DNA of 64,000 nucleotides from an uncultured Gammaproteobacteria bacterium (GTDB lineage Bacteria > Patescibacteriota > Microgenomatia > UBA12405): NCBI GenBank assembly GCA_964408995.1, contig CAYPBP010000001.1, forward strand, positions 74,823 through 138,822. The letters are read 5' to 3'. Under the pieces are notes generated by a model. The model did no database searches and had not been told where the DNA came from. It worked only from the letters and a program-made list of their open reading frames with translations. Shown one piece after another: positions 569 through 57,463 of this stretch (position 1 is the stretch's first letter; each line of letters begins with the position of its first letter). Both the position numbers and the translations under genes were made by a program.

Positions 569-1526
569 ACCTGTCCTTTCTATAATTATAGTTTCCTACA
601 ATACCAGTAAAATAACCTTAGACTGCCTAAAATCAATTTTAAAAGATAAAGGTCTTACTTTTGATTTGACCAAAATTAATAATAAAAATTTAGTTCCAAC
701 TGAAATTATTATTGTCGATAATGATTCAAAAGATAATTCTGTTGCTCAAATTAGAAAATTTATATCCGCCTATGGCGGACAACTTATCGCAAATAAGTTT
801 AATGCTGGTTTTGGAAAAGCTAATAATCAAGCTTTAAAAATAGCCAAAGGTAATTACATTTTATTTTTAAATTCTGACACTTTAATTCTTCATTCAGCCA
901 TTAGTCAAAGTTTAAATTGGCTCTGTTCTCATCCAGAGGCTTCTACTTGCACTGCTCAATTATTAAACTTGGACAAAACTATTCAAGCTTCTGGTGGCTT
1001 TTTCCCAAATTTAGCAAATGTCATTGCCTGGTGTTTAAACTTAGATGATCTTCCTTTGGTAAATAAAATAATCAAACCCCTCCATCCTCATACCCCCGAC
1101 TTTTACACTCGAGATAAATTTTATTTAAAAGACCGACAACTTGATTGGGTTACCGGTGCTTTTATGATGGTTAGAAATTCGCAATTAAAAATTACCAATG
1201 GTTTTGATGAAAATTATTTTATGTACGGAGAAGAAGTTGAACTTTCTTATAGAATTAAAAAAAATTATCCTAAATCTCAAACTTGGTATTTAGTCGGACC
1301 TCAAATAATTCACCTAGGTGGTGCTTCTGCTAAAAACAGAATTGACCCAATTTTAAATGAATACTTAGGCATTTTAGCTTTCTTCAAAAAACACAAAAAT
1401 AACTTGTCTTATCACTTGGTAAAATTTTTAGTCAAAATTAATGCTTTTAACCGTAGTATCATATACTTTATTAGAGGCAATAAAGTCAGTGCTTCAATCT
1501 ACCTTCAAACATGTTCAAAAATATAA
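561..1526 (+). CDS. family 2 glycosyltransferase
   Basis: The N-terminus SIIIVSYNTSKITLDCLKSI...IIIVDNDSKDNS is a typical GT2 DxD region. The ORF track starts at 354, but the in-frame ATG at 561 immediately follows the upstream stop, so I use it. Confidence 0.75.
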   Translation: MIKPVLSIIIVSYNTSKITLDCLKSILKDKGLTFDLTKINNKNLVPTEIIIVDNDSKDNSVAQIRKFISAYGGQLIANKFNAGFGKANNQALKIAKGNYILFLNSDTLILHSAISQSLNWLCSHPEASTCTAQLLNLDKTIQASGGFFPNLANVIAWCLNLDDLPLVNKIIKPLHPHTPDFYTRDKFYLKDRQLDWVTGAFMMVRNSQLKITNGFDENYFMYGEEVELSYRIKKNYPKSQTWYLVGPQIIHLGGASAKNRIDPILNEYLGILAFFKKHKNNLSYHLVKFLVKINAFNRSIIYFIRGNKVSASIYLQTCSKI

Positions 1527-4122: not shown

Positions 4123-5034
4123 ATGGATTTATCAATCATCATTCTTAATTACAATTCCAGAGATTATCTAAAAAAATGTGTTGAAAGTATTGCAAAATCA
4201 AACATTGGTAATTATCAGTACGAAGTTGTCGTAGTTGATAATTGTTCCACTGATAATAGCGTCCAATTGGCCAAGCAATCAAAAGTACCAAATACTAAAT
4301 ACTTAATACTTAATACTAACCAAGGCTTTGCTCATGGTAACAACCAAGGCTTAAAAGAAATTAATCCTAAAACCAGATTTGTTTTATTTTTAAATCCAGA
4401 TACTATAGTGCTAAAAAATACTTTCAAAAAAATGATTGAATTTTTTGATACAAATAAAGAAGTTGATGCTGCTACCTGCCAAATTGATTTAGCCTTAACT
4501 GGAAAAATGCAACTAGAATGTCACCGAGGTTTTCCAACTCCTTGGAATTCTTTATGTCATTTTAGTGGCTTATCAAAAATGTTTCCCAATTCAAAAATAT
4601 TTTCCGGTTATTTTCTTGGCCATCTAGATAAAAGTGTTCCACATCAAATTGATGCTTGTGTTGGGGCTTTTTTGATGGTCAAAAGGGAAGTTGGTAACAA
4701 AGTTAAATGGTGGAACGAAAAATATTTCTTTTATGGAGAAGACATTGATTTTTGTTATCAATTAAAACAACAAAAGTTTAATTTATATTTCAATCCAAAT
4801 TGTAAAATAACTCATTTTCAAGGAGTTTGTTCTGGATTAATCAATAAAAGTAAACATCTATCAAAAGCTTCTAGAGAAACAAAAGTAAAAGTAGCCAAAG
4901 CCAGCACTCAGGCCATGCGTATTTTTTATCAAGAAAATTTATTTAAAAACTATTCACCATTCACCAGAGGATTAGTTATGTTTGGAATTAAACTTCTAGA
5001 AATACAAAGAGTTTTTAAAGCTAAATACTTGTAA
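4123..5034 (+). CDS. family 2 glycosyltransferase
   Basis: LSIIILNYNSRDYLKKCVESI...VVDNCSTDNS GT2 motif. It contains an in-frame heptamer tandem repeat at 4288-4320. Confidence 0.8.
   Translation: MDLSIIILNYNSRDYLKKCVESIAKSNIGNYQYEVVVVDNCSTDNSVQLAKQSKVPNTKYLILNTNQGFAHGNNQGLKEINPKTRFVLFLNPDTIVLKNTFKKMIEFFDTNKEVDAATCQIDLALTGKMQLECHRGFPTPWNSLCHFSGLSKMFPNSKIFSGYFLGHLDKSVPHQIDACVGAFLMVKREVGNKVKWWNEKYFFYGEDIDFCYQLKQQKFNLYFNPNCKITHFQGVCSGLINKSKHLSKASRETKVKVAKASTQAMRIFYQENLFKNYSPFTRGLVMFGIKLLEIQRVFKAKYL
4288..4320. repeat. heptamer tandem repeat (AAATACT/TAATACT)n inside a GT2 CDS
   Basis: CCAAATACTAAATACTTAATACTTAATACTAAC. It is nearly identical to the repeats at 25323-25358 and 47583-47700. Confidence 0.5.
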
Positions 5035-5433: not shown

Positions 5434-6600
5434 ATGAAACATATTGTCATCGACGCTCGTCTTTATGGCCCAAAACACACCGGCATTGGTCGCTACACTA
5501 AGAATTTACTCAAAGCCTTATCTGGTCTTTCCACTTTTAAAAAAAACAAATTTACCTTAATTGTTTATCAAGACTTAAAAGAGGAAATTAAAAAAGATTT
5601 AGGAAATAATTTTAATTATTGTTCCACCAATATTCGCCATTATTCACTTCAAGAGCAACTTTTCTTACCATTTGTAATTTACAAACTAAAACCAGACCTA
5701 GTCCATTTTACCCATTTCAATAAACCCATTTTATATTTTGGCAAATCAGTGGTGACTATTCATGATCTAATCAAACATTTTTTTAAAGGAAAAGACACTA
5801 CCACCCACAATCAATTTCTTTACAACATTAAACATATTGCCTATCTTCTTTTAATTCAATTAATTATCAAAAGAAACCAAATTATTGTCCCTAGTAATTT
5901 CTGGCGTGATTATTTAATCAAAAATTTTAATCTAAAAAACAAACAAGTTATCACCACTCACGAAGCCGTTGACCCAACTTTTTTACCTGCCCGCCAAGAC
6001 TGCCTGCCCGCAGTGTCTTCGACACAGTCGATGCAAGCGGGCAAAGCTGTCGCCGGGCCAACAACCCCCAATTATTTAATCTATACCGGCAATCTTTATC
6101 CACATAAAAATATTCAAGTTGTTTTAAAAGCTATCAAAAATATACCAGATGTTAAATTAAAAATTATTTGTGCTCGTAACTTTTTTAGTGAAAAATTAAA
6201 ACAACAAATTGATAATCTTGGTATTAAAAAACAAGTAGAATTTTTAGGCTTTTTAGATGACTTGGAATTTAAAAATGTCTATCATCAAGCCCTTGCTTTA
6301 GTTCATCCATCTTTAATGGAAGGTTTTAGTCTGACTGGACTTGAAGCCATGGCTCTAAACTGTCCTGTCATCTCTTCTAATGCTAGTTGTTTACCAGAAA
6401 TTTATGGCCAATCTGTTCTTTATTTCAATCCTCATAATTCAAAAGATTTAGTCAAAAAAATAAACGAATTAAAAAATAATCCAATACTTCGTCAAAAATT
6501 AATCAATCTTGGTCATCTACAACTCAAAAAATATTCTTGGACAAAAACTGCCAAATTAACCATGGCTGTTTATCAAAACTTATTATGCGAAGCAAAGTGA
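5434..6600 (+). CDS. family 4 glycosyltransferase carrying an in-frame GC-rich insert
   Basis: GT4-like C-terminal half (EGFSLTGLEAMALNCPVISS). A GC-rich palindromic segment of about 84 nt lies in-frame at 5986-6069. Confidence 0.75.
   Translation: MKHIVIDARLYGPKHTGIGRYTKNLLKALSGLSTFKKNKFTLIVYQDLKEEIKKDLGNNFNYCSTNIRHYSLQEQLFLPFVIYKLKPDLVHFTHFNKPILYFGKSVVTIHDLIKHFFKGKDTTTHNQFLYNIKHIAYLLLIQLIIKRNQIIVPSNFWRDYLIKNFNLKNKQVITTHEAVDPTFLPARQDCLPAVSSTQSMQAGKAVAGPTTPNYLIYTGNLYPHKNIQVVLKAIKNIPDVKLKIICARNFFSEKLKQQIDNLGIKKQVEFLGFLDDLEFKNVYHQALALVHPSLMEGFSLTGLEAMALNCPVISSNASCLPEIYGQSVLYFNPHNSKDLVKKINELKNNPILRQKLINLGHLQLKKYSWTKTAKLTMAVYQNLLCEAK
5986..6069. repeat. GC-rich palindromic element inserted in-frame in a GT4 gene
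   Basis: CCTGCCCGC occurs twice as a direct repeat. GTGTCTTCGACAC is a palindrome. GCAAGCGGGCA is an inverted repeat of CCTGCCCGC. The segment is over 65% GC against about 28% nearby. Confidence 0.5.
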
Positions 6601-7697
6601 AGTCCGCCTCTGGCGGAACACCAAAAGTTGCTCTATTCTACGACTGGTTAAACCAGTGGGGTGGAGCTGAAAAAGTCTTATTGGACTTAATCAAAATTTA
6701 TCCAGACGCTCCAGTTTATACTCTAATTCACGATCCTAAAAAAACTAAATGGTTGCCGGCTAAAACAAAAATTATTACTTCTTTTATTCAAAAGTTGCCC
6801 TTTGCCAAAAATAATCCTTTCTTTTACACTCCACTCTATTCAATCGCCTTAGAACAATTTGATTTTTCTGCTTTTGACATTGTTATCTCTACCACCTCAA
6901 CTGTTGGCCATTGTTTGTTAACTCAACCAAATTCCATTTTTATTTGTTATTTTCATAATGTAAATCGTCACATTTATCAAAAAAAACATTTCTGGCCCAT
7001 CAGTCAATTAATTTCTAATTACAAAAAAAGTGATTACATTTTTGCCATTAGACCCGATTATTTATTTTGTAATTCCAAAACTGTTCAAAAAAGAATTGAA
7101 AATATTTATAAAAGAAAAGCTAAAATAATTTATCCTGGAATTGACACCTCCTTTTTTATGCCCTCAATTGTAAAAGCAAAAGAAAAATATTTCTTAACAG
7201 TTTCTAGGTTAGTTGCTCACAAAAAAATAGAATTGGCTATTAAAGCTTGTCATCAATTACATCAAAAACTCTATATTGTTGGTACTGGTCGAGATAAAAG
7301 TAAATTAACCAAATTGATAAAATCCATAAAAGATCCCAATATAAAACTATTAGGAAAAGTTGATGATAATCAATTATTAAATCTTTATCAAAATTGTCAG
7401 GCCTTAATTTGTCCTCAACTTGAAGACTTTGGTTTAACTCCACTTGAAGCTCAATCTTGCGGCAAGCCAGTTATCGCTTATCAAAAAGGCGGTTTAACTG
7501 AAACTGTAATCAACCATAAAACTGGTATTTTTTTTCAATACCAAACAGTAAAAAGTCTAGTTTTAGCCATCAAAAAATTTGATAAAAATAAATTTTTAAC
7601 CGAATCTTGTCGATTAAGAGCAATCAGTTTTTCCAGTAGCAACTTTATGCTAAACTTTAAAAAAGAAACTGACATTATATGGAAGAATCATCAATAA
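6585..7697 (+). CDS. family 4 glycosyltransferase
   Basis: VALFYDWLNQWGGAEKVL N-terminus and EDFGLTPLEAQSCGKPVIA are typical GT4. The start is uncertain: ATG 6585 overlaps the upstream gene and GTG 6597 is an alternative. Confidence 0.7.
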   Translation: MRSKVKSASGGTPKVALFYDWLNQWGGAEKVLLDLIKIYPDAPVYTLIHDPKKTKWLPAKTKIITSFIQKLPFAKNNPFFYTPLYSIALEQFDFSAFDIVISTTSTVGHCLLTQPNSIFICYFHNVNRHIYQKKHFWPISQLISNYKKSDYIFAIRPDYLFCNSKTVQKRIENIYKRKAKIIYPGIDTSFFMPSIVKAKEKYFLTVSRLVAHKKIELAIKACHQLHQKLYIVGTGRDKSKLTKLIKSIKDPNIKLLGKVDDNQLLNLYQNCQALICPQLEDFGLTPLEAQSCGKPVIAYQKGGLTETVINHKTGIFFQYQTVKSLVLAIKKFDKNKFLTESCRLRAISFSSSNFMLNFKKETDIIWKNHQ

Positions 7698-8773
7698 AAC
7701 ATTATATTTTAATCCTCTGTGGTGGCACTGGACCAAGACTTTGGCCATTATCAAGAAAACATAACCCAAAACAATTTTTATCTTTTTTTAGTAAAGACTC
7801 CGTTTTGGAACAAACTATTAAAAGAGCTCAACGGACTGTTGATGTTGAAAATATTTACATTGTTTCAACCGGTAATTACTTAAATAAAATTATTAAAATT
7901 GCTCAAAAATTTAATTTAACTAAAAATATAATTATTGAACCAGATAAAAAAAATACCGCTCTGGCTATTCTTTATGCCACTACCAGAATAAAACAAATTG
8001 ATCCAAATGCTGTTATCAGCACTTTGCCATCAGACCATTACATTAAAAATGTTCTCCGTTTTAAGCAAACTTTGAATAAAGCCAAAAGAATAGCTTGGCA
8101 AACCGAAACCATTGTTACTATTGGTATTAAAGCAACTGGCCCCAACCCTTCTTATGGTTATATTTCGACTAAAAAAAAGATTGAAGATCACTACACAGTT
8201 TCTAAATTTGTTGAAAAACCAAAACCCAAAAGAGCTTTAAGACTAATTGAACAAGGTGCTCACTGGAATTCAGGTATCTATACTTTTAGTATCCCCACTT
8301 TAATATCTGAATTTGAAAAACTACAACCAGAATATTTCCAAACTTTTAAAAAATTAGAAGCTAACTTAGATTATCCTAAAAAAATTGCTCAAATATATAA
8401 ACAATCACCTGATCTCCCCATAGATAGAGCCATTTCTGAAAAATCATCAAAAATGACTATGCTTCCAGCTACCTTTGATTGGAGTGACATTGGCGAATGG
8501 AAAGCTATTTTTTTAAATTCTAATAAAACAAAAGATAATCTTGCTATCCTTGATTCAAAAACCCAATTTCTAAGCACTGGTTCTCAAAACTGTTTGGTCT
8601 CTGGAACAGAGGACAGATTAATCGGTTTAGTAGGTGTGGATAATTTGGCTATTATTGACACTCCAGACGCTTTGTTAGTTTGCAATTTAGACTCTAGTTT
8701 TAATGTTAGAGATTTAGTAAGCTTGATGGTGAAACATAAAAAATATAAATCATACTTTTTGGGTAAAAAATGA
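7679..8773 (+). CDS. manC: mannose-1-phosphate guanylyltransferase-like nucleotidyltransferase
   Basis: ILCGGTGPRLWPLSR is the GMP/NTP-transferase signature. Confidence 0.7.
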   Translation: MEESSIKHYILILCGGTGPRLWPLSRKHNPKQFLSFFSKDSVLEQTIKRAQRTVDVENIYIVSTGNYLNKIIKIAQKFNLTKNIIIEPDKKNTALAILYATTRIKQIDPNAVISTLPSDHYIKNVLRFKQTLNKAKRIAWQTETIVTIGIKATGPNPSYGYISTKKKIEDHYTVSKFVEKPKPKRALRLIEQGAHWNSGIYTFSIPTLISEFEKLQPEYFQTFKKLEANLDYPKKIAQIYKQSPDLPIDRAISEKSSKMTMLPATFDWSDIGEWKAIFLNSNKTKDNLAILDSKTQFLSTGSQNCLVSGTEDRLIGLVGVDNLAIIDTPDALLVCNLDSSFNVRDLVSLMVKHKKYKSYFLGKK

Positions 8774-9408
8774 AAAAAATATTATTCGCTATTTTCAAAA
8801 GAACAATCGATATTGTTGGCTCACTGATTCTTCTTATTTTGTTTTCAGGAATTATGCTTGTAACCATGATTTTAATTAAATTAAGCTCACCTGGACCTAT
8901 ATTTTTTAAACAAAAAAGAGTTGGTAAAAACAATAAAGAATTTTGGATGTATAAATTTCGATCAATGTACACTGGCGACAATGATAAAAGACTAAAAGAT
9001 AATTACCCAAAATTATGGGAAAAATATAAAAATAATGGCTGGAAATTACCTATGTCAGAAGATCCTCGAATTACTCCAATTGGTAAAAAAATTAGATCTT
9101 TAACTATTGATGAATTCCCTCAATTAATAAATGTTTTAAAAAGTGAAATGAGTTTAGTTGGACCAAGAGCTTATCGAGATGAAGAACTTAAAGAACAAGA
9201 AATTAAATATCCAAAAACTAAAAAATATATTGAAATTATAAGATCAGCCAAACCTGGTATCACTGGTGTTTGGCAAACTTCAGGTAGAAATGATATCTCT
9301 TTTGAACAAAGAGCTAAAATGGATGCTGAATATATCCAAAAAAAATCATTCATTGGAGAAATAATGGTAATTTTAAAAACTCCAATGTCTATGTTGTCTC
9401 GATGGTAA
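8770..9408 (+). CDS. polyprenyl-phosphate sugar phosphotransferase (bacterial sugar transferase family)
   Basis: SPGPIFFKQKRVGKNNKEFWMYKFRSM...DEFPQLINVLKSEMSLVGPR is the Bac_transf catalytic domain. Confidence 0.8.
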   Translation: MKKILFAIFKRTIDIVGSLILLILFSGIMLVTMILIKLSSPGPIFFKQKRVGKNNKEFWMYKFRSMYTGDNDKRLKDNYPKLWEKYKNNGWKLPMSEDPRITPIGKKIRSLTIDEFPQLINVLKSEMSLVGPRAYRDEELKEQEIKYPKTKKYIEIIRSAKPGITGVWQTSGRNDISFEQRAKMDAEYIQKKSFIGEIMVILKTPMSMLSRW

Positions 9409-25322: not shown

Positions 25323-25358
25323 TATACTTAATACTTAATACTAAATACTAAATACTTT
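25323..25358. repeat. heptamer tandem repeat (TAATACT/AAATACT)n, intergenic, upstream of murC
   Basis: TATACTTAATACTTAATACTAAATACTAAATACT. Confidence 0.5.
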
Positions 25359-28069: not shown

Positions 28070-29104
28070 ATGATGCAATTATATCTAGGACTCCTACTTT
28101 TTTCATTTTTAATTACTAGTATTTTAGTAGTTCCATTTATCAATCTGCTTTATAAACTAAAATTTCAACGCCAACTTCAAAAAACAACTGATTTTCAAAA
28201 CAATAGAACTCCTATTTTTGATAAATTTCATAATCAAAAACAAGGTACACCTGTTGGTGGGGGTTTATTAGTTATTGTTTCTGTCTGTATTATTTTTGCC
28301 TTTCTTTTCCCAATTTTAAAGTTTTCTAACCTTTTTATTTCATCTAACTACAATATAACTCACGAATTAACTATTTTATTTTTTACCTTTATTAGTTTTG
28401 GGTTACTAGGTCTTTACGATGATATTTATAAATTCTTTGGTTTTAGTAAAACTGGTTTCTTTGGTCTAAAAATGTTTTATAAATTAGTTTTACAACTAAT
28501 TTTAGCTTTAATTATTTCTTCAATGATTTATTTTCAACTAGGTACTGATTTCATTTACATTCCTTTCTTAGGCATCATTAAACTAGGAATTTTCTTTATC
28601 CCTATTTCCACTCTTATCATTGCTGGTTTTGCTAATTTCTTTAATATTACCGACGGTCTAGATGGTCTTTCCTGTGGTTTATTAATGATTTCTCTCTTTG
28701 CTTTTTGGATACTAGCCAGCACTTCAATGGATACAGTCATTTCATCATTTCTTGCTCTCTGGATTGGCGCTTTAATCGCCTTTTTATATTTCAATGTTCA
28801 TCCGGCTAGAATTTGGTTAGGAGATGTTGGGGCCCTATCTTTTGGTGCCACTTTTGCAGTCATTGCTCTTTTGCTTGGCAAAATAGTTCCTTTAATTATT
28901 GTTGGAGCTCCTTTCCTAGTCGAAGGACTTTCCAGTGCCATTCAAATTCTTTCAAAAAAATTCTTAAAAAGAAAAATATTTCCAGCTGCTCCAATTCATT
29001 TAACTCTTCAACACCTTGGTTGGGAAGAAGATAAAATTGTTTTTAGGGCTTGGCTAGCTGGTATTATGTTAGCTATATTTGGACTATGGTTGGGAATAAA
29101 TTAA
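28070..29104 (+). CDS. mraY: phospho-N-acetylmuramoyl-pentapeptide transferase
   Basis: Polytopic, with the MraY motifs ITDGLDGL and GDVGALSFGA. Confidence 0.9.
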   Translation: MMQLYLGLLLFSFLITSILVVPFINLLYKLKFQRQLQKTTDFQNNRTPIFDKFHNQKQGTPVGGGLLVIVSVCIIFAFLFPILKFSNLFISSNYNITHELTILFFTFISFGLLGLYDDIYKFFGFSKTGFFGLKMFYKLVLQLILALIISSMIYFQLGTDFIYIPFLGIIKLGIFFIPISTLIIAGFANFFNITDGLDGLSCGLLMISLFAFWILASTSMDTVISSFLALWIGALIAFLYFNVHPARIWLGDVGALSFGATFAVIALLLGKIVPLIIVGAPFLVEGLSSAIQILSKKFLKRKIFPAAPIHLTLQHLGWEEDKIVFRAWLAGIMLAIFGLWLGIN

Positions 29105-29628
29105 CACAACTTAAAAAAGAAATTGAACATTATATTGGTTTGCCATATAGTAAAAATATTCTTAAAGATGGCAAAATAATCAAAGAACAATTTCTTGGGG
29201 GTAAGGGCAACTGTCGTCAAATTGCTACTGAAACCATTAGACTTGCCCAAAAACAAAAAATAGACCTACTCAAATTAACTAATCAAGAATTCTACAATTT
29301 TCAAAAAAAGAATCATCTTGGTATCGATTGTTCTGGTCTTGTTTGCCAACTACTCAATTTTTATTTTGAAACCAATTTAAATCCACGTAAAAACTCGGCT
29401 AACATGCTCACTTCTGCTCCACTTTCAAAAGAAATAAAAGAAGAAGATATTAAAACAGGGGATTTAGTTAGACAAAAAAACGGTCATCACGTTTTATTTA
29501 TAATTGAAAAACAAGGCAATATTATCAAATACGTTGATAGCTCTCGTGAAAACAGAGGAGTCAAATACGGTCAGTTTGACCTTCAAGACAAAACCTTTAA
29601 ACACCTTGGTTTCTATCGATTAAAATAA
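29086..29628 (+). CDS. NlpC/P60-family cysteine peptidase-like protein
   Basis: GIDCSGLVCQ catalytic Cys motif followed by a downstream His (GHHVLFI). The ORF track starts at 29050, inside mraY; a later start is more likely. Confidence 0.5.
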   Translation: MVGNKLTQLKKEIEHYIGLPYSKNILKDGKIIKEQFLGGKGNCRQIATETIRLAQKQKIDLLKLTNQEFYNFQKKNHLGIDCSGLVCQLLNFYFETNLNPRKNSANMLTSAPLSKEIKEEDIKTGDLVRQKNGHHVLFIIEKQGNIIKYVDSSRENRGVKYGQFDLQDKTFKHLGFYRLK

Positions 29629-29640
29629 ATTCACAAATGT

Positions 29641-29662
29641 ACCCCCGCAGCTGCGGGGGTAC
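29641..29662. terminator. perfect 20-bp GC-rich palindrome (ACCCCCGCAGCTGCGGGGGT), a candidate bidirectional terminator between the convergent P60 gene and the lysW-like gene
   Basis: The perfect hairpin is visible directly in the sequence. It is GC-rich in a roughly 28% GC background, and the flanks are moderately T-rich on both strands. Confidence 0.45.
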
Positions 29663-29676
29663 ATTTAATTAATTAC

Positions 29677-39327: not shown

Positions 39328-39642
39328 ATGAAATACGCTGTTATTGCCATTTCTGGCACTCAATATCAAATCGAAGAAAATCAAACAATTACCGTTGATT
39401 TATTAGATCTTAAAGAAGGTGAAAAATCTTCAACTGATCAAGTTTTATTAACTGTTGACGGAGATAAAGTTAAAGTTGGCACTCCAACCGTAAAAGACGC
39501 TTCTGTTGAATTCAAAGTCATCAAACATTATCAAGGTAAAAAATTAAAAGTTTTCAAATATAAATCAAAATCACGTTATCGTAAAACAACTGGTTTTCGA
39601 GCTCAATTAACTGATATACAAATATTAAAAATTAACTTTTAA
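39328..39642 (+). CDS. rplU: 50S ribosomal protein L21
   Basis: MKYAVIAISGTQYQIEEN... matches the L21 N-terminus. Confidence 0.9.
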   Translation: MKYAVIAISGTQYQIEENQTITVDLLDLKEGEKSSTDQVLLTVDGDKVKVGTPTVKDASVEFKVIKHYQGKKLKVFKYKSKSRYRKTTGFRAQLTDIQILKINF

Positions 39643-39678
39643 TCTACGATCTAACATCTAAGATCTAATAACTAATTT

Positions 39679-41619: not shown

Positions 41620-44130
41620 CTTTCTCATTGAATTAAAATTAAAGCTTTTAATTAATACTTCATTTCCATAATTCATAGCCACAAAATTATTAGCACAAAC
41701 ATTTGAATAATCTTTTTTGTTTATATTAATTTTGTTAGTTTTTAAAAGATCATCCATATCTTGATAACTCATAGCCACCATTTCACTATTAATAATCTTT
41801 TTACTATTTAAGCTAATTAAAAATCCAATTACCCCTTGGTAATCACTAATTTTTTTAAAACCATAATTAGCTAAATTTTTTGAACAAGTATTTGTCAAAG
41901 ACATCCAAATAGTTGAATTATCAATAATTTTTTGACTAACAATTCTTTCATTTTTCCTTAATCTAAAATTAAAAATACTTCCAATTAAAAGTCGTGATTG
42001 ATTCTTGTCTAAAAATTTTAAAGCATTTTTTAAATCAATATCGTTTTTATTAGAAACTAATAATGATTCAATATCCGATTTAATCATTGATTTCAAAAAT
42101 AAAACATTATTTTTTTCATTAATAATTTGTCCATCAATAGCATCAATTTTTATAGTCCCAATTTCTCCATTAACAACATTCTTTTCCCAATAAGACCAAT
42201 TATTATCATTAGTATTACCTGCCACCACATGCATCAAACCATTTCCAGTCCCAATAAAGTTAATATTACAATATTGGTAATTCTTATTCTTAATAATTAC
42301 AAAACCATCCTTTTCTAAAACAGGGGAATCATTACCACACTTAACTGAGTAATTAACTGGTGAACCCACAAAAACAACTACACTATTAGTTAAATCCTGA
42401 TTCTGAGTAATTACATTAACCTGACTTAACCCAATTTCTATCATTACCTGGTTAACAGTTTTATCAACAATATCACCATGATTACTATTAATCTCTATAA
42501 AGTTATTTCCTTTATAGTTAGCACTTTTAGTTAAAACTGTGCCATCACCGTTATTTGTATGTAAAATATTTTTAATTCTTCCATCTGGCCAAATTCCTAA
42601 AATTTTATCAAAAATACTATTATTTGTAAGTTCAACAGAACTCATAGTTTTATAATCTTTTCCAGAAAATAATTTAATCCCCGAAATTGAAGCAACTTGA
42701 TTTTTACTCATTAAAAAATTATTTTTTGTTTCCAACTTACTATTAGATAAAACAACTCCATTCTTTTTAACAAAATCAAAAGTTGGCAATAAATCTTTTA
42801 TTATTGGAGAATATTTTCTGGCTGCTGCCATATCACTTTTTTGATTTAAACCTTGAATCTTTAATAAAATTTTAAAAGCAATTGAACTAATATTAGACAA
42901 ATCAGAAATTTGACCACCATTCCAAACCTCATAACCATCAACTGATCCCAAATGTGGACTTCCAAGAGTTATAACCTTTTCTAATCTAGAATCATTTCTA
43001 TTATCTTCAGCCCAAATTCTAGAAGTCACTCCACCAAGACTATGACCAACTAAAATAACTTTTTCATTTGATGTAACTTTTTGATTAATAAAAATATTTA
43101 AATTAGCTACAATATCAACCAAAGGTTTTCTCCAATCATAATTCCAAACATAAAAATCTTCATTTTCCTTTAAACCATTTTGTTTTAATCCATTTATCAA
43201 CGCATCATAATTTGTTACAAAAGGTGTCATTTTCCATTTATCATTACCAACTGATTTATTGTAAACAATCGCATCCGAATTCCAACTAGCTCCCAACCCT
43301 GGAACAATAATAATTTTTGTTTTTGGGGTAGGAATTGGTGTAGGTGTTGGAGTTGGAGTTGGAATTATTGTTGGAGTAGGAGTAGGTGTGGGGGTGGGAG
43401 TGGGAGTAAAGGTTGGTGTTGGGGTAGGAGTTGGTGTTGGGGTAGGAGTTGGTGTTGGGGTAAGAGTTGGAACATTAAAATCACTAACAATCAAATTATC
43501 GAATAAATTTTTAGTCGATCTCTTAGAATAGTCACCTCCCCAATTAAAAAATCCAAAACTCCCAGCTAAAATAGGATTTTCATCATCAAAATCAATTATC
43601 AAAACTGAATCAAAATATATTTTGATATTAGAATCATCAACTTTAATTTCAACCAAATGAAACTGATTCTGAGTTAATTTATTTTCAAAATCATCAAAAG
43701 AATCTAATATTGTATAACCTGAAGCATAATTATATTTCATCAAAACAATCTTGCCACCATCTTGGGGCCAATAAGGATCTTTGTATCTTACACCTAATAT
43801 ATAATATTCTTTTCTATCCTCAGAAACTCTAAAAACAATATTTTGATCTACCCCAGTCTCATTTAGAGCATCAACTTTTATATAATAATTAGATAAATTC
43901 CAAAAAGATTTCGCTAACAAAAAAGAAGATCCTCCACGACTTACTTCTCCTACAAGTTTATTATCAACAATTTTCCAACCATCTGGATTAGAATTAGCAT
44001 TAATAAAAATCCAATTATCTAAATTGTTTTGATCAAAATTATCAAAAAAATAATTAACTCCAAGAACTGAATTAACATTAAATATAAATGTTAAAATTAG
44101 AATAGATATAAATAATATTTTTGTTTTCAT
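41593..44130 (-). CDS. large secreted protein with an N-terminal LamG/DUF1080-like domain, a (PT)n linker and an alpha/beta-hydrolase (lipase/LCAT-like) domain
   Basis: Signal peptide MKTKILFISILILTFIFNVNS. PTPTPTPTP linker of about 45 residues. GHSLGG nucleophile elbow. The C-terminal 9 codons are antisense to tRNA-Val. Confidence 0.55.
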   Translation of the reverse strand: MKTKILFISILILTFIFNVNSVLGVNYFFDNFDQNNLDNWIFINANSNPDGWKIVDNKLVGEVSRGGSSFLLAKSFWNLSNYYIKVDALNETGVDQNIVFRVSEDRKEYYILGVRYKDPYWPQDGGKIVLMKYNYASGYTILDSFDDFENKLTQNQFHLVEIKVDDSNIKIYFDSVLIIDFDDENPILAGSFGFFNWGGDYSKRSTKNLFDNLIVSDFNVPTLTPTPTPTPTPTPTPTPTFTPTPTPTPTPTPTIIPTPTPTPTPIPTPKTKIIIVPGLGASWNSDAIVYNKSVGNDKWKMTPFVTNYDALINGLKQNGLKENEDFYVWNYDWRKPLVDIVANLNIFINQKVTSNEKVILVGHSLGGVTSRIWAEDNRNDSRLEKVITLGSPHLGSVDGYEVWNGGQISDLSNISSIAFKILLKIQGLNQKSDMAAARKYSPIIKDLLPTFDFVKKNGVVLSNSKLETKNNFLMSKNQVASISGIKLFSGKDYKTMSSVELTNNSIFDKILGIWPDGRIKNILHTNNGDGTVLTKSANYKGNNFIEINSNHGDIVDKTVNQVMIEIGLSQVNVITQNQDLTNSVVVFVGSPVNYSVKCGNDSPVLEKDGFVIIKNKNYQYCNINFIGTGNGLMHVVAGNTNDNNWSYWEKNVVNGEIGTIKIDAIDGQIINEKNNVLFLKSMIKSDIESLLVSNKNDIDLKNALKFLDKNQSRLLIGSIFNFRLRKNERIVSQKIIDNSTIWMSLTNTCSKNLANYGFKKISDYQGVIGFLISLNSKKIINSEMVAMSYQDMDDLLKTNKININKKDYSNVCANNFVAMNYGNEVLIKSFNFNSMRKWLLQDSNL

Positions 44131-47582: not shown

Positions 47583-47700
47583 TATAAAATACTAAATACT
47601 AGCTATCAAATACTGATTTCAAAGGCCGAAATAAAAAGGTATTTTTATTTTTAATTTATATACCAAATACTTAATACCAAATACTAAATACTGATTTCAA
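47583..47700. repeat. heptamer repeats plus a 21-nt direct repeat that overlaps the tRNA-Thr 3' end
   Basis: AAATACTAAATACT and ACCAAATACTTAATACCAAATACTAAATACT. The direct repeat ATACTGATTTCAAAG[G/A]GCCGAA occurs at 47610-47630 and at 47688-47708. Confidence 0.5.
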
Positions 47701-56895: not shown

Positions 56896-57210
56896 ATGTC
56901 ATTAAAATTTACACTAAACGAACAAGATTTTTCAGTTGGCGATTCCGTCAAGGTCAATTACAAAATCAAAGAAAAAGATAAAGAAAGATTACAAGCCTTT
57001 GATGGTGTCATTTTGGGTATCACTGGAACCGGTGAAAACAAAAATTTCATCGTTCAAAAAATCGCTTCTGACGCAGTTAAGGTTGAAAGAATTTTTCCTG
57101 TTAATTCACCATGGATCGACAGTATTAAAAAACTAAGAGGACCTAAGAGCAAAATTCGACGTGCTAAATTATATTATCTACGTAACGATAAAGTTCGTAA
57201 AACCGCTTAA
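56896..57210 (+). CDS. rplS: 50S ribosomal protein L19
   Basis: 104 aa ending ...PWIDSIKKLRGPKSKIRRAKLYYLR. Confidence 0.9.
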   Translation: MSLKFTLNEQDFSVGDSVKVNYKIKEKDKERLQAFDGVILGITGTGENKNFIVQKIASDAVKVERIFPVNSPWIDSIKKLRGPKSKIRRAKLYYLRNDKVRKTA

Positions 57211-57216
57211 CAATCA

Positions 57217-57330
57217 GGGTCTTTAGCCCCGCCTGCAGAAGCTATCGCTTCAGCGATTGCGGGCAGGTCAGTTGGTAGATCCGCCAACCGGCGGACTTTT
57301 AAGCAATTTATTGCTTCGTTATTTAAAAAC
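57217..57330 (+). pseudogene. degenerate tRNA-Lys-like fragment interrupted by GC-rich palindromic inserts
   Basis: It shares GGGTCTTTAGC, TCAGTTGGTAGA and CTTTTAAGCAAT blocks with the intact tRNA-Lys immediately downstream. It carries inserts CCCCGCCTGCAG...CGATTGCGGGCAGG and TCCGCCAACCGGCGGA. I cannot fold it into a cloverleaf. Confidence 0.4.
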
Positions 57331-57332
57331 TT

Positions 57333-57405
57333 GGGTCTTTAGCTCAGTTGGTAGAGCAGTTGCCTTTTAAGCAATTGGTCGCGGGTTCGAGTCCCGCAGG
57401 ACCCA
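57333..57405 (+). tRNA. tRNA-Lys (anticodon TTT)
   Basis: Acceptor GGGTCTT/AGGACCC, D-arm GCTCAGTTGGTAGAGC, anticodon loop CTTTTAA, T-arm GCGGGTTCGAGTCCCGC. Confidence 0.9.
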
Positions 57406-57463
57406 CTTTCATATATTGATTTGTTTTAATCCCTTGTAATTTTTCTGAAAAGATAAATATTAT

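Follow-up and report, generated by a model that had tools for sequence, protein, structure and literature searches.

A GC-rich insert in a bacterial glycosyltransferase gene and a family of small hairpin repeats in the candidate phyla radiation

We analyzed a GC-rich segment, E1, inside a glycosyltransferase family 4 (GT4) gene on a stretch of 64,000 nucleotides (nt) of contig CAYPBP010000001.1, referred to as the window (64 kb, 30.8% GC). Judging by the names of its GT4 homologues, the putative source is a member of Candidatus Shapirobacteria, which belongs to the candidate phyla radiation (CPR); genomes in this radiation are tiny, and almost all knowledge of its bacteria comes from metagenomes. 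The core of E1 is very probably a copy of a hairpin repeat of about 39 nt, here called the E family, that has spread through CPR genomes and lies in frame even in essential genes. An earlier note on this DNA had proposed a family of small, GC-rich, dispersed hairpin repeats able to enter coding sequence in frame. Empty orthologous sites, further copies, the predicted fold and the dispersal of a second hairpin family, H, support that interpretation as essentially right, on a larger scale than was proposed.

An insert in the linker of a GT4 glycosyltransferase

The features of the host gene and of the segment are as follows.

5434..6600, + strand: host gene, GT4-family glycosyltransferase of 388 amino acids (aa), assigned from the open reading frame (ORF) list, the Pfam domains of homologues and alignment
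5986..6069, + strand: E1 as first noted, an 84-nt in-frame insertion of 64% GC in the inter-domain linker
6003..6041, - strand (canonical strand): E1 core, a 39-nt E-family member, CCCGCTTGCA-TCGACTGTGTCGAAGACAC-TGCGGGCAGG
5986..6002, + strand: 5' shell, the terminal 9-mer CCTGCCCGC in a second copy, then CAAGACTG, pairing with the 3' shell
6042..6069, + strand: 3' shell, GC-rich CAAAGCTGTCGCCGGGCCAACAACCCCC, which lengthens the stem

A GC island (5986-6072, 64% GC) lies inside the GT4 ORF. It is one of four 60-nt islands of at least 58% GC in the window, the other three being a G-rich coding repeat, tRNA-Asp and the region upstream of tRNA-Lys. As the earlier note had described, a GC-rich segment interrupts an AT-rich GT4 coding sequence and leaves the frame intact, and the encoded peptide is the one first quoted. 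Between the motifs EAVDPxFL and NYxIYTGN the window protein has 29 aa encoded by DNA of 64% GC, whereas the same linker is AT-rich and 11-18 aa long in 20 aligned homologues and at over 40 orthologous loci of GTDB genomes; orthologue lengths are 366-385 aa, against 388 aa in the window. None of the more than 40 orthologues carries the E1 residues, and comparison with them shows the 84-nt segment to be an insertion specific to this Shapirobacteria lineage. A search of 1.84 billion representative proteins with the 30-aa E1 peptide gave no true match, only a spurious one to a repeat protein, and no E1-like sequence was found by GC-island scan or covariance model in 1.27 Mb from 80 related genomes.

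The E1 insert was found in three independent assemblies. A Logan contig from SRR8925755 is 100% identical to the window over 11.8 kb, insert included, and one from SRR8925793 has 99.45% identity (23 mismatches in 4167 nt), with one substitution inside the insert.

An AlphaFold model of the GT4 protein has a mean pLDDT of 82. Residues 187-209 fall below 50 and have no secondary structure; they sit between the last strand of the N-terminal domain (172-174) and the first strand of the C-terminal domain (214-219). The model shows the insert as a predicted unstructured loop in the linker between two Rossmann-like domains. In other lineages the same linker holds unrelated small repeats (L numbers denote the loci and contigs compared). 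L005 and L011 have period-7 repeats, (GGAAATT)n; L030 has an H-type hairpin with heptamers after it; L207 has a 21-nt mini-E (CCTGCCCGC-TCG-GCAGGCGGG) with heptamers on its flanks; L209 has another hairpin; and L034 and L049 have a palindromic element TGTCATCCTGAA...TTCAGCATGACA. These loci show the linker as a site where such sequence is evidently tolerated. Palindromic inserts of the TGTCATCCTGAA...TTCAGCATGACA or GTCATCCTGAGCGAA...CGAAGGATC type, encoding peptides like CHPEFISGS...VQHDK, were seen in other lineages in the same GT4 linker and in a loop of a family 2 glycosyltransferase (GT2): L034 10556-10624, L049 832-927, and L052 and L057 (GT2 loop).

Within E1 the features first reported are all there: the direct repeat of CCTGCCCGC, the inverted arm GCGGGCA and the palindrome GTGTC-TTC-GACAC. 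The 9-mer occurs at 5986 and 6003 and, inverted, at 57259, three times against 0.04 expected, a count that none of 100 shuffles reached. The segment is predicted to fold into one long imperfect hairpin (5989-6058), with energies of -22 kcal/mol as DNA and -36.1 kcal/mol as RNA (z -4.4 and -4.5); none of 200 shuffles was as stable. The earlier note took the whole 84 nt as the repeat. The GC-rich segment is real; the repeat unit comprises the 39 nt at 6003-6041, which encode (C)LPAVSSTQSMQAG, and the other 45 nt form a GC-rich shell around it. We rejected the reading of E1 as two complete nested E copies: without the core, the family profile matches the 9-nt terminus only, and such an origin is left as a possibility for the shell alone.

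The E family: architecture, hosts and reading frame

On its canonical strand an E element reads 5'-CCCGCCTGCA-(centre of 17-26 nt)-TGCGGGCAGG-3', with a modal length of 39 nt and a range of 37-46 nt. Scanning JGI metagenome contigs with the pattern CCCGCYTGCA-N17-26-TGCGGGCAGG gave at least 120 matches; metagenome copy counts given here and below are counts among the matches listed. The matches have a common internal architecture and recurrent subtypes, the centre TCAGCTATGCTGAAAGCAT alone appearing 13 times. Bearing contigs span 0.32-0.63 GC and several CPR lineages. The exact 40-mer of E2, the second member in the window (described below), was found on eight metagenome contigs of 0.32-0.52 GC with unrelated flanks.

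The ends, 10 nt each, pair at 9 of their 10 positions; one of the pairs is T.G, and there is one C.A mismatch. When 49 distinct copies were aligned, the centre was seen to contain two overlapping, mutually exclusive 5-bp helices, A and B, both of which covary. Helix A has 67 cells changed on both sides and helix B has 61, compared with 23-24 +/- 5 in shuffles and 7-18 in slid-partner controls. In E1 the helices are TCGAC/GTCGA and GTGTC/GACAC, and in E2 they are GAAGC/GCTTC and ATCGC/GCGAT. We built a covariance model, R1, from the 49-copy alignment, in which the E1 core and E2 were both among the seeds. R1 finds two matches in the window, E2 (58.2 bits) and the E1 core (56.0 bits, E 4.8e-9), and the motif copies that the earlier note had seen at 57227-57267 form one family with the E1 core. 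The E1 core centre is nearly identical to that of L109 (17 of 19 positions), and L129 encodes a similar peptide. In 1.27 Mb from 80 related genomes R1 found no E copies except on contigs of the same species, and on the metagenome loci it added copies with variant ends, including three head-to-tail in L144.

Rfam models at the gathering threshold identified five tRNAs only in the whole window, and nothing credible for E2 or for the neighbouring H hairpin H3 when 57150-57450 was searched at E values up to 10. We found no description of the E family in the literature, within a coverage that does not extend to all journals. BLAST found no match to two E variants among GenBank phages or to one of them among PLSDB plasmids. 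The single match of the E pattern among viral contigs was apparently due to chance, and the H pattern also had one match there.

Length predicts where E copies are found. Long read-through ORFs contain 33 of the 64 copies of 39 nt, 3/9 of those of 42 nt and 3/5 of those of 45 nt, and only one of 33 copies of 40 or 38 nt (1/26 and 0/7, respectively). Because copies in coding sequence are almost only those of a length divisible by three (3n), we infer that they are read through and translated. The commonest translations are PARNAFSIADAGG-like and xLPA....MQAG-like, the latter being the E1 frame, in which L129 has CLPAVPSAQPMQAG and the window CLPAVSSTQSMQAG. Host proteins include RpoC (two copies), RpoB, PPDK, UvrD, UvrB, a histidine kinase, GluRS, trigger factor and PurA. 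With respect to neighboring genes, a crude proxy for replication direction, the orientation of 3n copies is biased (39:14), whereas that of non-3n intergenic copies is not (17:16), a pattern that we attribute to selection on the reading frame or peptide rather than to strand-specific insertion.

The RpoB insertion provides a filled and empty pair. On L098, a Candidatus Nomurabacteria contig, RpoB carries 13 residues, PARNTFGIADASG, that are missing from orthologues 95-96% identical to it. At the DNA level GAGAAA[39 nt]ACTCCT in L098 corresponds to GAGAAAACTCCT in L211 and L212, with flanks 96% and 93% identical; exactly 39 nt are added, without target-site duplication and without loss of target bases. 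This comparison shows integration that is, to all appearances, precise. For E1 itself the linker is too diverged to define junctions. RpoB of another member of the Parcubacteria, P0182, has an E-type sequence, PARNASHSDAGG, at a different site. We also observed a second variable site in Parcubacteria RpoB (alignment 634-647; P0122, P0128, P0130, P0131 and P0182), where several lineages, including the E-bearing P0122, have (G/S)L(T/A)HK(A/T)T(A/T)(E/G)G; this site may be a decayed E insertion.

The flanks of 124 copies carry a single signal, a T at position +1 (71/124); no GTAG or CGTC tag, target-site duplication or target motif was found in them. One E copy is nested in the centre of another in L132, and adjacent copies occur in L107, L116, L144, L159 and L196. 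Taken with the tRNA copies described below, these cases show E sequences in intergenic DNA, in truncated tRNA copies, in other E copies and in coding sequence. At the threshold applied, period-7 repeats lie near 3% of copies and 0% of control positions, a real but minority association, and period 7 gave the highest mean autocorrelation among the periods tested around E. The paired copies of L135 might have suggested a composite transposon; this was rejected, as the DNA between them holds housekeeping genes only, and no transposase-like ORF was found there (no systematic search for autonomous insertion sequences (IS) was made). In L109 (0.63 GC) an E copy at 6446-6484 shares the contig with a gene for an SU10-type phage major capsid protein (7808-8818), so some E copies reside on phage-like DNA. 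In L180 an E copy (2670-2709) lies upstream of a 16S rRNA gene, 12 nt from its 5' end (AGAGTTTGATCCTAGCTCAG).

The tRNA-Lys pseudo-copy and the H hairpins

The second E copy of the window lies between rplS and a tRNA gene, in the following arrangement.

57217..57331, + strand: truncated 5' tRNA-Lys copy with E2, H3 and spacer, a unit of 115 nt with the 11-nt direct repeat GGGTCTTTAGC at its borders
57228..57267, + strand: E2, a 40-nt E-family member, CCCGCCTGCAGAAGCTATCGCTTCAGCGATTGCGGGCAGG (R1, 58.2 bits)
57280..57295, + strand: H3, TCCGCC-AACC-GGCGGA, in place of GCAGTTGC of the pseudo-tRNA anticodon stem
57333..57406, + strand: intact tRNA-Lys(UUU), the paralogous empty site for E2 and H3 (ARAGORN; Rfam 76.3 bits)

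E2 has the architecture CCCGCCTGCA-GAAGCTATCGCTTCAGCGAT-TGCGGGCAGG and is inserted between GGGTCTTTAGC and TCAGTTGG of the pseudo-copy. After rplS the order is GGGTCTTTAGC, E2, TCAGTTGGTAGA, H3 (TCCGCCAACCGGCGGA), CTTTTAAGCAATT, a 24-nt spacer and the intact tRNA-Lys. The pseudo-tRNA (57217-57300) consists of blocks of 11, 12 and 13 nt identical to the intact gene, with the two hairpins between them, which bears out the description of a degenerate tRNA-Lys copy with E1-type motifs. A MAFFT alignment presented E2 as diverged tRNA sequence; we rejected this view, since the three exact blocks support a copy with two insertions. Compared with the intact gene, E2 is not accompanied by a target-site duplication.

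Among strains that are near-identical upstream, the rplS-tRNA-Lys spacer (window 57217-57342) exists in three states. L083 has the window state. L082, with one mismatch in 1720 nt, has no 115-nt unit, and its tRNA-Lys begins 6 nt after the rplS stop. L084, 100% identical over 489 nt upstream, has a differently truncated pseudo-copy in a version of ~165 nt. This version holds an AT-rich insert of 89 nt and, at another D-loop position, an E copy of 44 nt whose central helix has undergone a compensatory change (ATCCCGAT/ATCGGGAT). Mobility of E is suggested by these two different pseudo-copy positions in strains identical upstream. L084 was also seen to diverge from the window downstream of tRNA-Lys, which may thus be the edge of a variable region. 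The Logan contigs L082 and L083 end at or within the pseudo-tRNA/E2 region, indicating that the repeats fragment short-read assemblies.

Of ~125 E copies, 19 lie within 400 nt of tRNA genes, and several of them sit in truncated tRNA copies beside an intact tRNA of the same type. In-silico deletion of E restored a predicted tRNA in one of the 19, with a stop anticodon. From several such cases we infer that E inserts into tRNA genes. An element that hits a tRNA gene would survive only where an intact duplicate exists, and the hit copy would then decay; such rescue by duplication is a putative step.

The second hairpin family, TCCGCC-N3/4-GGCGGA, is represented in the window by H3 and two further members.

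765..779, + strand: H1, TCCGCC-TAT-GGCGGA, in frame in a GT2 gene (...ISAYGGQ...)
6588..6617, + strand: H2, the full 30-nt H element CGAAGCAAAGTGAAG-TCCGCC-TCT-GGCGGA (CGAAGCAAAGTGAAGTCCGCCTCTGGCGGA)

The three copies, at 765, 6603 and 57280, compare with 0.00 expected, so the two sites reported earlier, 6603-6617 and 57280-57295, are joined by a third at 765-779. GC-rich hairpin seeds number 12 in the window, against 1.2 +/- 1.1 in shuffles. Two GT4 genes meet in an overlapping stop/start, ATGA, and H2 follows its ATG; the first GT4 gains the tail CEAK* and the second the N-terminal extension RSKVKSASGG. The site is filled in the window, L001 and L002 and empty, with a compact ATGA, in L003, L004, L008, L009, L010 and L016. 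The H element also occurs at non-orthologous sites: L013 and L018 have it in the GT2 loop, L054 at the N-terminus of the first GT4, and L030 in the GT4 linker. Filled and empty orthologous sites and non-orthologous copies together establish the dispersal that had been proposed for this hairpin. The surface loop of GT2 that holds H1 carries other inserts in relatives, including the full H element in L013 and L018, and the shortest orthologues read IKKFKEI---KLIANK at this loop. E-positive metagenome contigs contain 26 H-type hairpins in 776 kb, often as tandem 15-nt modules and sometimes beside E, and the Shapirobacteria H hairpins usually have period-7 repeats on their flanks. The H hairpins, of 15-30 nt, are shown by these sites to behave, in all likelihood, like E on a smaller scale.

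Period-7 microsatellites were also observed in the window on their own, at 4286-4319, 25324-25357, 39642-39668 and 47660-47692 (TACTAAA, ATACTTA, ATCTAAG and ATACTAA; 3.9-4.9 copies). The first lies inside a GT2-family coding sequence (4123..5034), in the loop equivalent to the 765-779 site of the paralogous GT2, and the last is 10 nt from tRNA-Thr. At the same hot spots relatives have heptamers of the sequence AAATTAG, AAATTGG or AAATTGA, which in many cases surround GC hairpins.

Possible mechanisms, rival explanations and known systems

We propose that E and H are non-autonomous selfish elements. An enzyme acting in trans would move or copy them, recognizing either the hairpin or its asymmetric ends and making no staggered cuts when it joins DNA. 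Enzyme classes that act without target-site duplication are the Y1 HUH transposases (IS200/IS605, RAYT), IS607-type serine recombinases and tyrosine recombinases; these, together with copying based on reverse transcriptase, are the candidates. Copies would persist only where they are harmless: in intergenic DNA, in redundant tRNA copies and, if their length is 3n, in tolerant surface loops. Identical copies in very different genomes and the copy on a phage-like contig point to probable horizontal spread. The lack of a fixed target motif and of an intergenic orientation bias argues mildly against a classical IS608-like mode.

Several points weigh against the reading of the E1 core as a member of a spreading repeat family. 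No mobilizing enzyme was identified in the 64 kb of this genome, and the mechanism is drawn from anatomy only. The 45-nt shell around the core is not recognizable as a second E copy, the 9-mer excepted. The case for translation of the insert comes from the frame rule, and any single filled and empty pair is also compatible with precise deletion. A strictly lagging-strand, single-stranded DNA mechanism of the IS608 type predicts an orientation bias, and the 17:16 ratio shows none. At two copies per 64 kb, the density is low for a family of repetitive extragenic palindromes (REPs) or transposable elements of the miniature inverted-repeat type (MITEs). Finally, the termini were fixed by the search pattern, so that their conservation among metagenome matches is no evidence; they were found independently of that search in E1, E2, L084 and the mini-E of L207.

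Among the alternatives, the best survivor holds that the elements are not selfish but structured motifs that benefit the host and are kept by selection, as terminators, mRNA stabilizers or modulators of translational coupling. Many E copies are intergenic, just past stop codons or beside tRNA and rRNA genes, H2 sits exactly on a stop/start junction, the hairpin is maintained by compensatory changes, and such roles are known for REPs in other bacteria (PMC3733652). We nevertheless consider this account unlikely: copies lie in essential proteins, in pseudo-tRNAs and in one another, their presence differs between near-identical strains, and no E was found in the 80 related genomes, features more in keeping with a parasite than with a signal that the host needs. 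The selfish and host-beneficial views are not mutually exclusive.

A local origin of the GC-rich segment in the linker, by replication slippage, template switching or palindrome amplification, would account for the doubled 9-mer CCTGCCCGC, 17 nt apart, and for the 45-nt shell without recognizable relatives, and the linker and neighboring loops of relatives are full of slippage-prone period-7 repeats. It fails for the core: over its full length the core matches an external family with 56 bits, its centre is identical to that of L109 at 17/19 positions, and its peptide is close to that of L129. For the segment as a whole we regard local origin as very improbable; for the shell only, it is plausible.

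Also very improbable, and slightly less credible than local origin, is the proposal that the inserts are removed from the RNA as mini-introns or skipped by the ribosome, leaving the protein unaffected. Models for bypass are the yeast mitochondrial byp elements and T4 gene 60. The hairpin is very stable, and several E copies occupy D-loop or T-loop positions of tRNA-like sequences, which recalls the non-canonical introns of archaeal tRNAs. Under such a scheme, however, length would not matter, yet copies in coding sequence are almost all 3n and free of stops; moreover, the E-bearing tRNA copies are truncated and stand beside intact genes, and the hosts are bacteria (trigger factor, UvrB, L19). 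An archaeal-type (bulge-helix-bulge, BHB) tRNA mini-intron was likewise rejected, the window and L084 copies being 5' fragments beside an intact tRNA-Lys. That E1 is an assembly chimera, such as metagenome-assembled genomes can contain, or ordinary conserved protein sequence, for which 30-nt GC-rich patches at conserved Gly/Ala/Pro motifs in relatives might speak, can be dismissed, as the identical insert recurs in the separate Logan assemblies SRR8925755 and SRR8925793, is missing from all orthologues examined and has no true match for its 30-aa peptide among the 1.84 billion proteins.

We return to the E family as a spreading repeat and compare it with known systems. It behaves like an in-frame, intragenic palindromic repeat of a known kind and fails at least one defining feature of each class compared. 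Rickettsia palindromic elements (RPEs; Ogata et al. 2000, 2002) are described in PMC10969869 and PMC3733652 as selfish palindromes of an AT-rich reduced genome that are often in frame in unrelated functional conserved genes, the added peptide being tolerated by the fold. PMC3733652 gives them a length of about 100-150 bp, a CGTC end and a restriction to Rickettsia. E shares with RPEs the in-frame insertion in functional conserved genes; unlike them, it is 37-46 nt long, has no CGTC tag and extends across CPR lineages.

REPs are GC-rich imperfect palindromes of 20-40 nt with a terminal GTAG or CGTC, mostly extragenic and present in hundreds of copies per genome, although some lie inside genes, those for replication and repair among them (PMC3733652, PMC3116915). 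They form dimers (REPINs) and nested arrangements, and their proposed driver is a trans-acting HUH transposase, RAYT, that recognizes the hairpin (PMC3733652, PMC3116915). E is likewise a GC-rich imperfect palindrome of 20-40 nt; it differs in having no end tag, a two-helix centre, two copies per 64 kb and about half of its 3n copies inside genes. No RAYT was identified in the 64 kb of this genome, a search that did not include a genome-wide protein screen of E-positive genomes.

The small dispersed repeats (SDRs) of Nostocaceae, reportedly described by Elhai et al. in 2008 in Genome Res 18:1484, are said to be mobile, hairpin-capable units of tens of nt, nested in one another and placed inside genes, with tandem heptamer repeats. 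They are not known to have a transposase. SDRs are reported only in Nostocaceae by PMC5861425, which cites the Elhai paper, as does PMC3116915. Set beside that reported description, E resembles SDRs as a very small hairpin repeat, nested and inside genes, and differs in phylum and in its unrelated sequence.

The GC clusters of yeast mitochondria, such as GC42, are GC-rich hairpins of ~40 nt in an extremely AT-rich genome, with constrained stems and variable loops; they merge, shuffle and transfer horizontally, move by a mechanism described as unresolved, are organellar and mostly intergenic, and have a putative AG target-site duplication (PMC4478555). E resembles them as a GC-rich hairpin of ~40 nt spreading in an AT-rich genome, but makes no duplication and frequently lies in coding sequence.

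MITEs are non-autonomous elements of 70-300 bp or more, usually with a target-site duplication, and derivatives of IS200/IS605 have no such duplication, two different end hairpins and a fixed target of 4-5 nt on one side. E has terminal inverted repeats like MITEs (9/10 positions pair) and, unlike them, no target-site duplication at the rpoB or tRNA-Lys site. It is like IS200/IS605 derivatives in making no duplication and unlike them in having a single hairpin and only the +1 T bias. Neither half of the MITE/REP-like label given earlier fits by its classical definition: E is far too short and lacks the duplication of a MITE, and it lacks the GTAG or CGTC of a REP.

A broader reading, which we offer tentatively and at less than even odds, is that E represents an undescribed class of ultra-small (~39 nt) mobile DNA, spread horizontally among CPR bacteria and possibly carried by phages. 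Its integration would be single-base-precise and duplication-free by a mechanism outside known transposon families, with the two-helix centre and asymmetric ends as the recognition structure, and it would seed loops in RpoB, RpoC, UvrB and aminoacyl-tRNA synthetases.

The family is notable for its size, its precision, its spread across CPR lineages and its essential host proteins. In-frame copies in RNA polymerase, repair enzymes, synthetases and glycosyltransferases affect annotation, alignments, marker-gene phylogenies and protein-family models, where an insert can pass for a lineage-specific insertion or domain. E is also a ready source of new protein surface loops; if the copies are translated, the insert peptides would include LPAVSSTQSMQAGK and PARN...DAGG. 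The repeats break assemblies, as in the two Logan contigs, and the states of the rplS-tRNA-Lys spacer can serve as strain-level markers. So small a unit, integrated precisely without duplication and identical across base compositions, raises the question of which enzyme moves it.

Further GC-rich repeats lie outside the E and H families. The window contains a palindrome that the earlier note, at 29641-29662, had counted as a family member.

29635-29666: perfect 15+15 palindrome AAATGTACCCCCGCA-GC-TGCGGGGGTACATTT, 6 nt after the stop of ORF 29050..29628

The perfect palindrome is present as described; its membership is not sustained, and we rejected it as an E or H element, since R1 gave no match there and its position and score are terminator-like. 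It has only CCCGCAG in common with E1. The predicted RNA fold has -25.9 kcal/mol (z -8.4), a T-rich tract follows, and a terminator scan matched on the minus strand; the palindrome looks like a putative intrinsic terminator. One of the four GC islands, 43323-43471, is G-rich and tandemly repeated, its periods being 6, 18, 24 and 48 nt (as in GTTGGTGTTGGGGTAGGA), and probably encodes a Gly/Val-rich repeat. Two further GC-rich families were observed in Shapirobacteria loci, TCCTCCCTTCATCAAGGGAGGATGTCCGAAGGAC and CACCCC(C/A)TCCTTGTCAAAGGAGGGG...GGGGGTGGATTNGTTTGGGGTGCTTCCGCTGC. Their sites fall into a first group (L008 3860, L011 217 and 3919, L014 3179) and a second group (L002 1600, L004 1590, L008 877, L010 2368, L011 104/1593, L003 72), and both families recur across genomes and twice each within L011.

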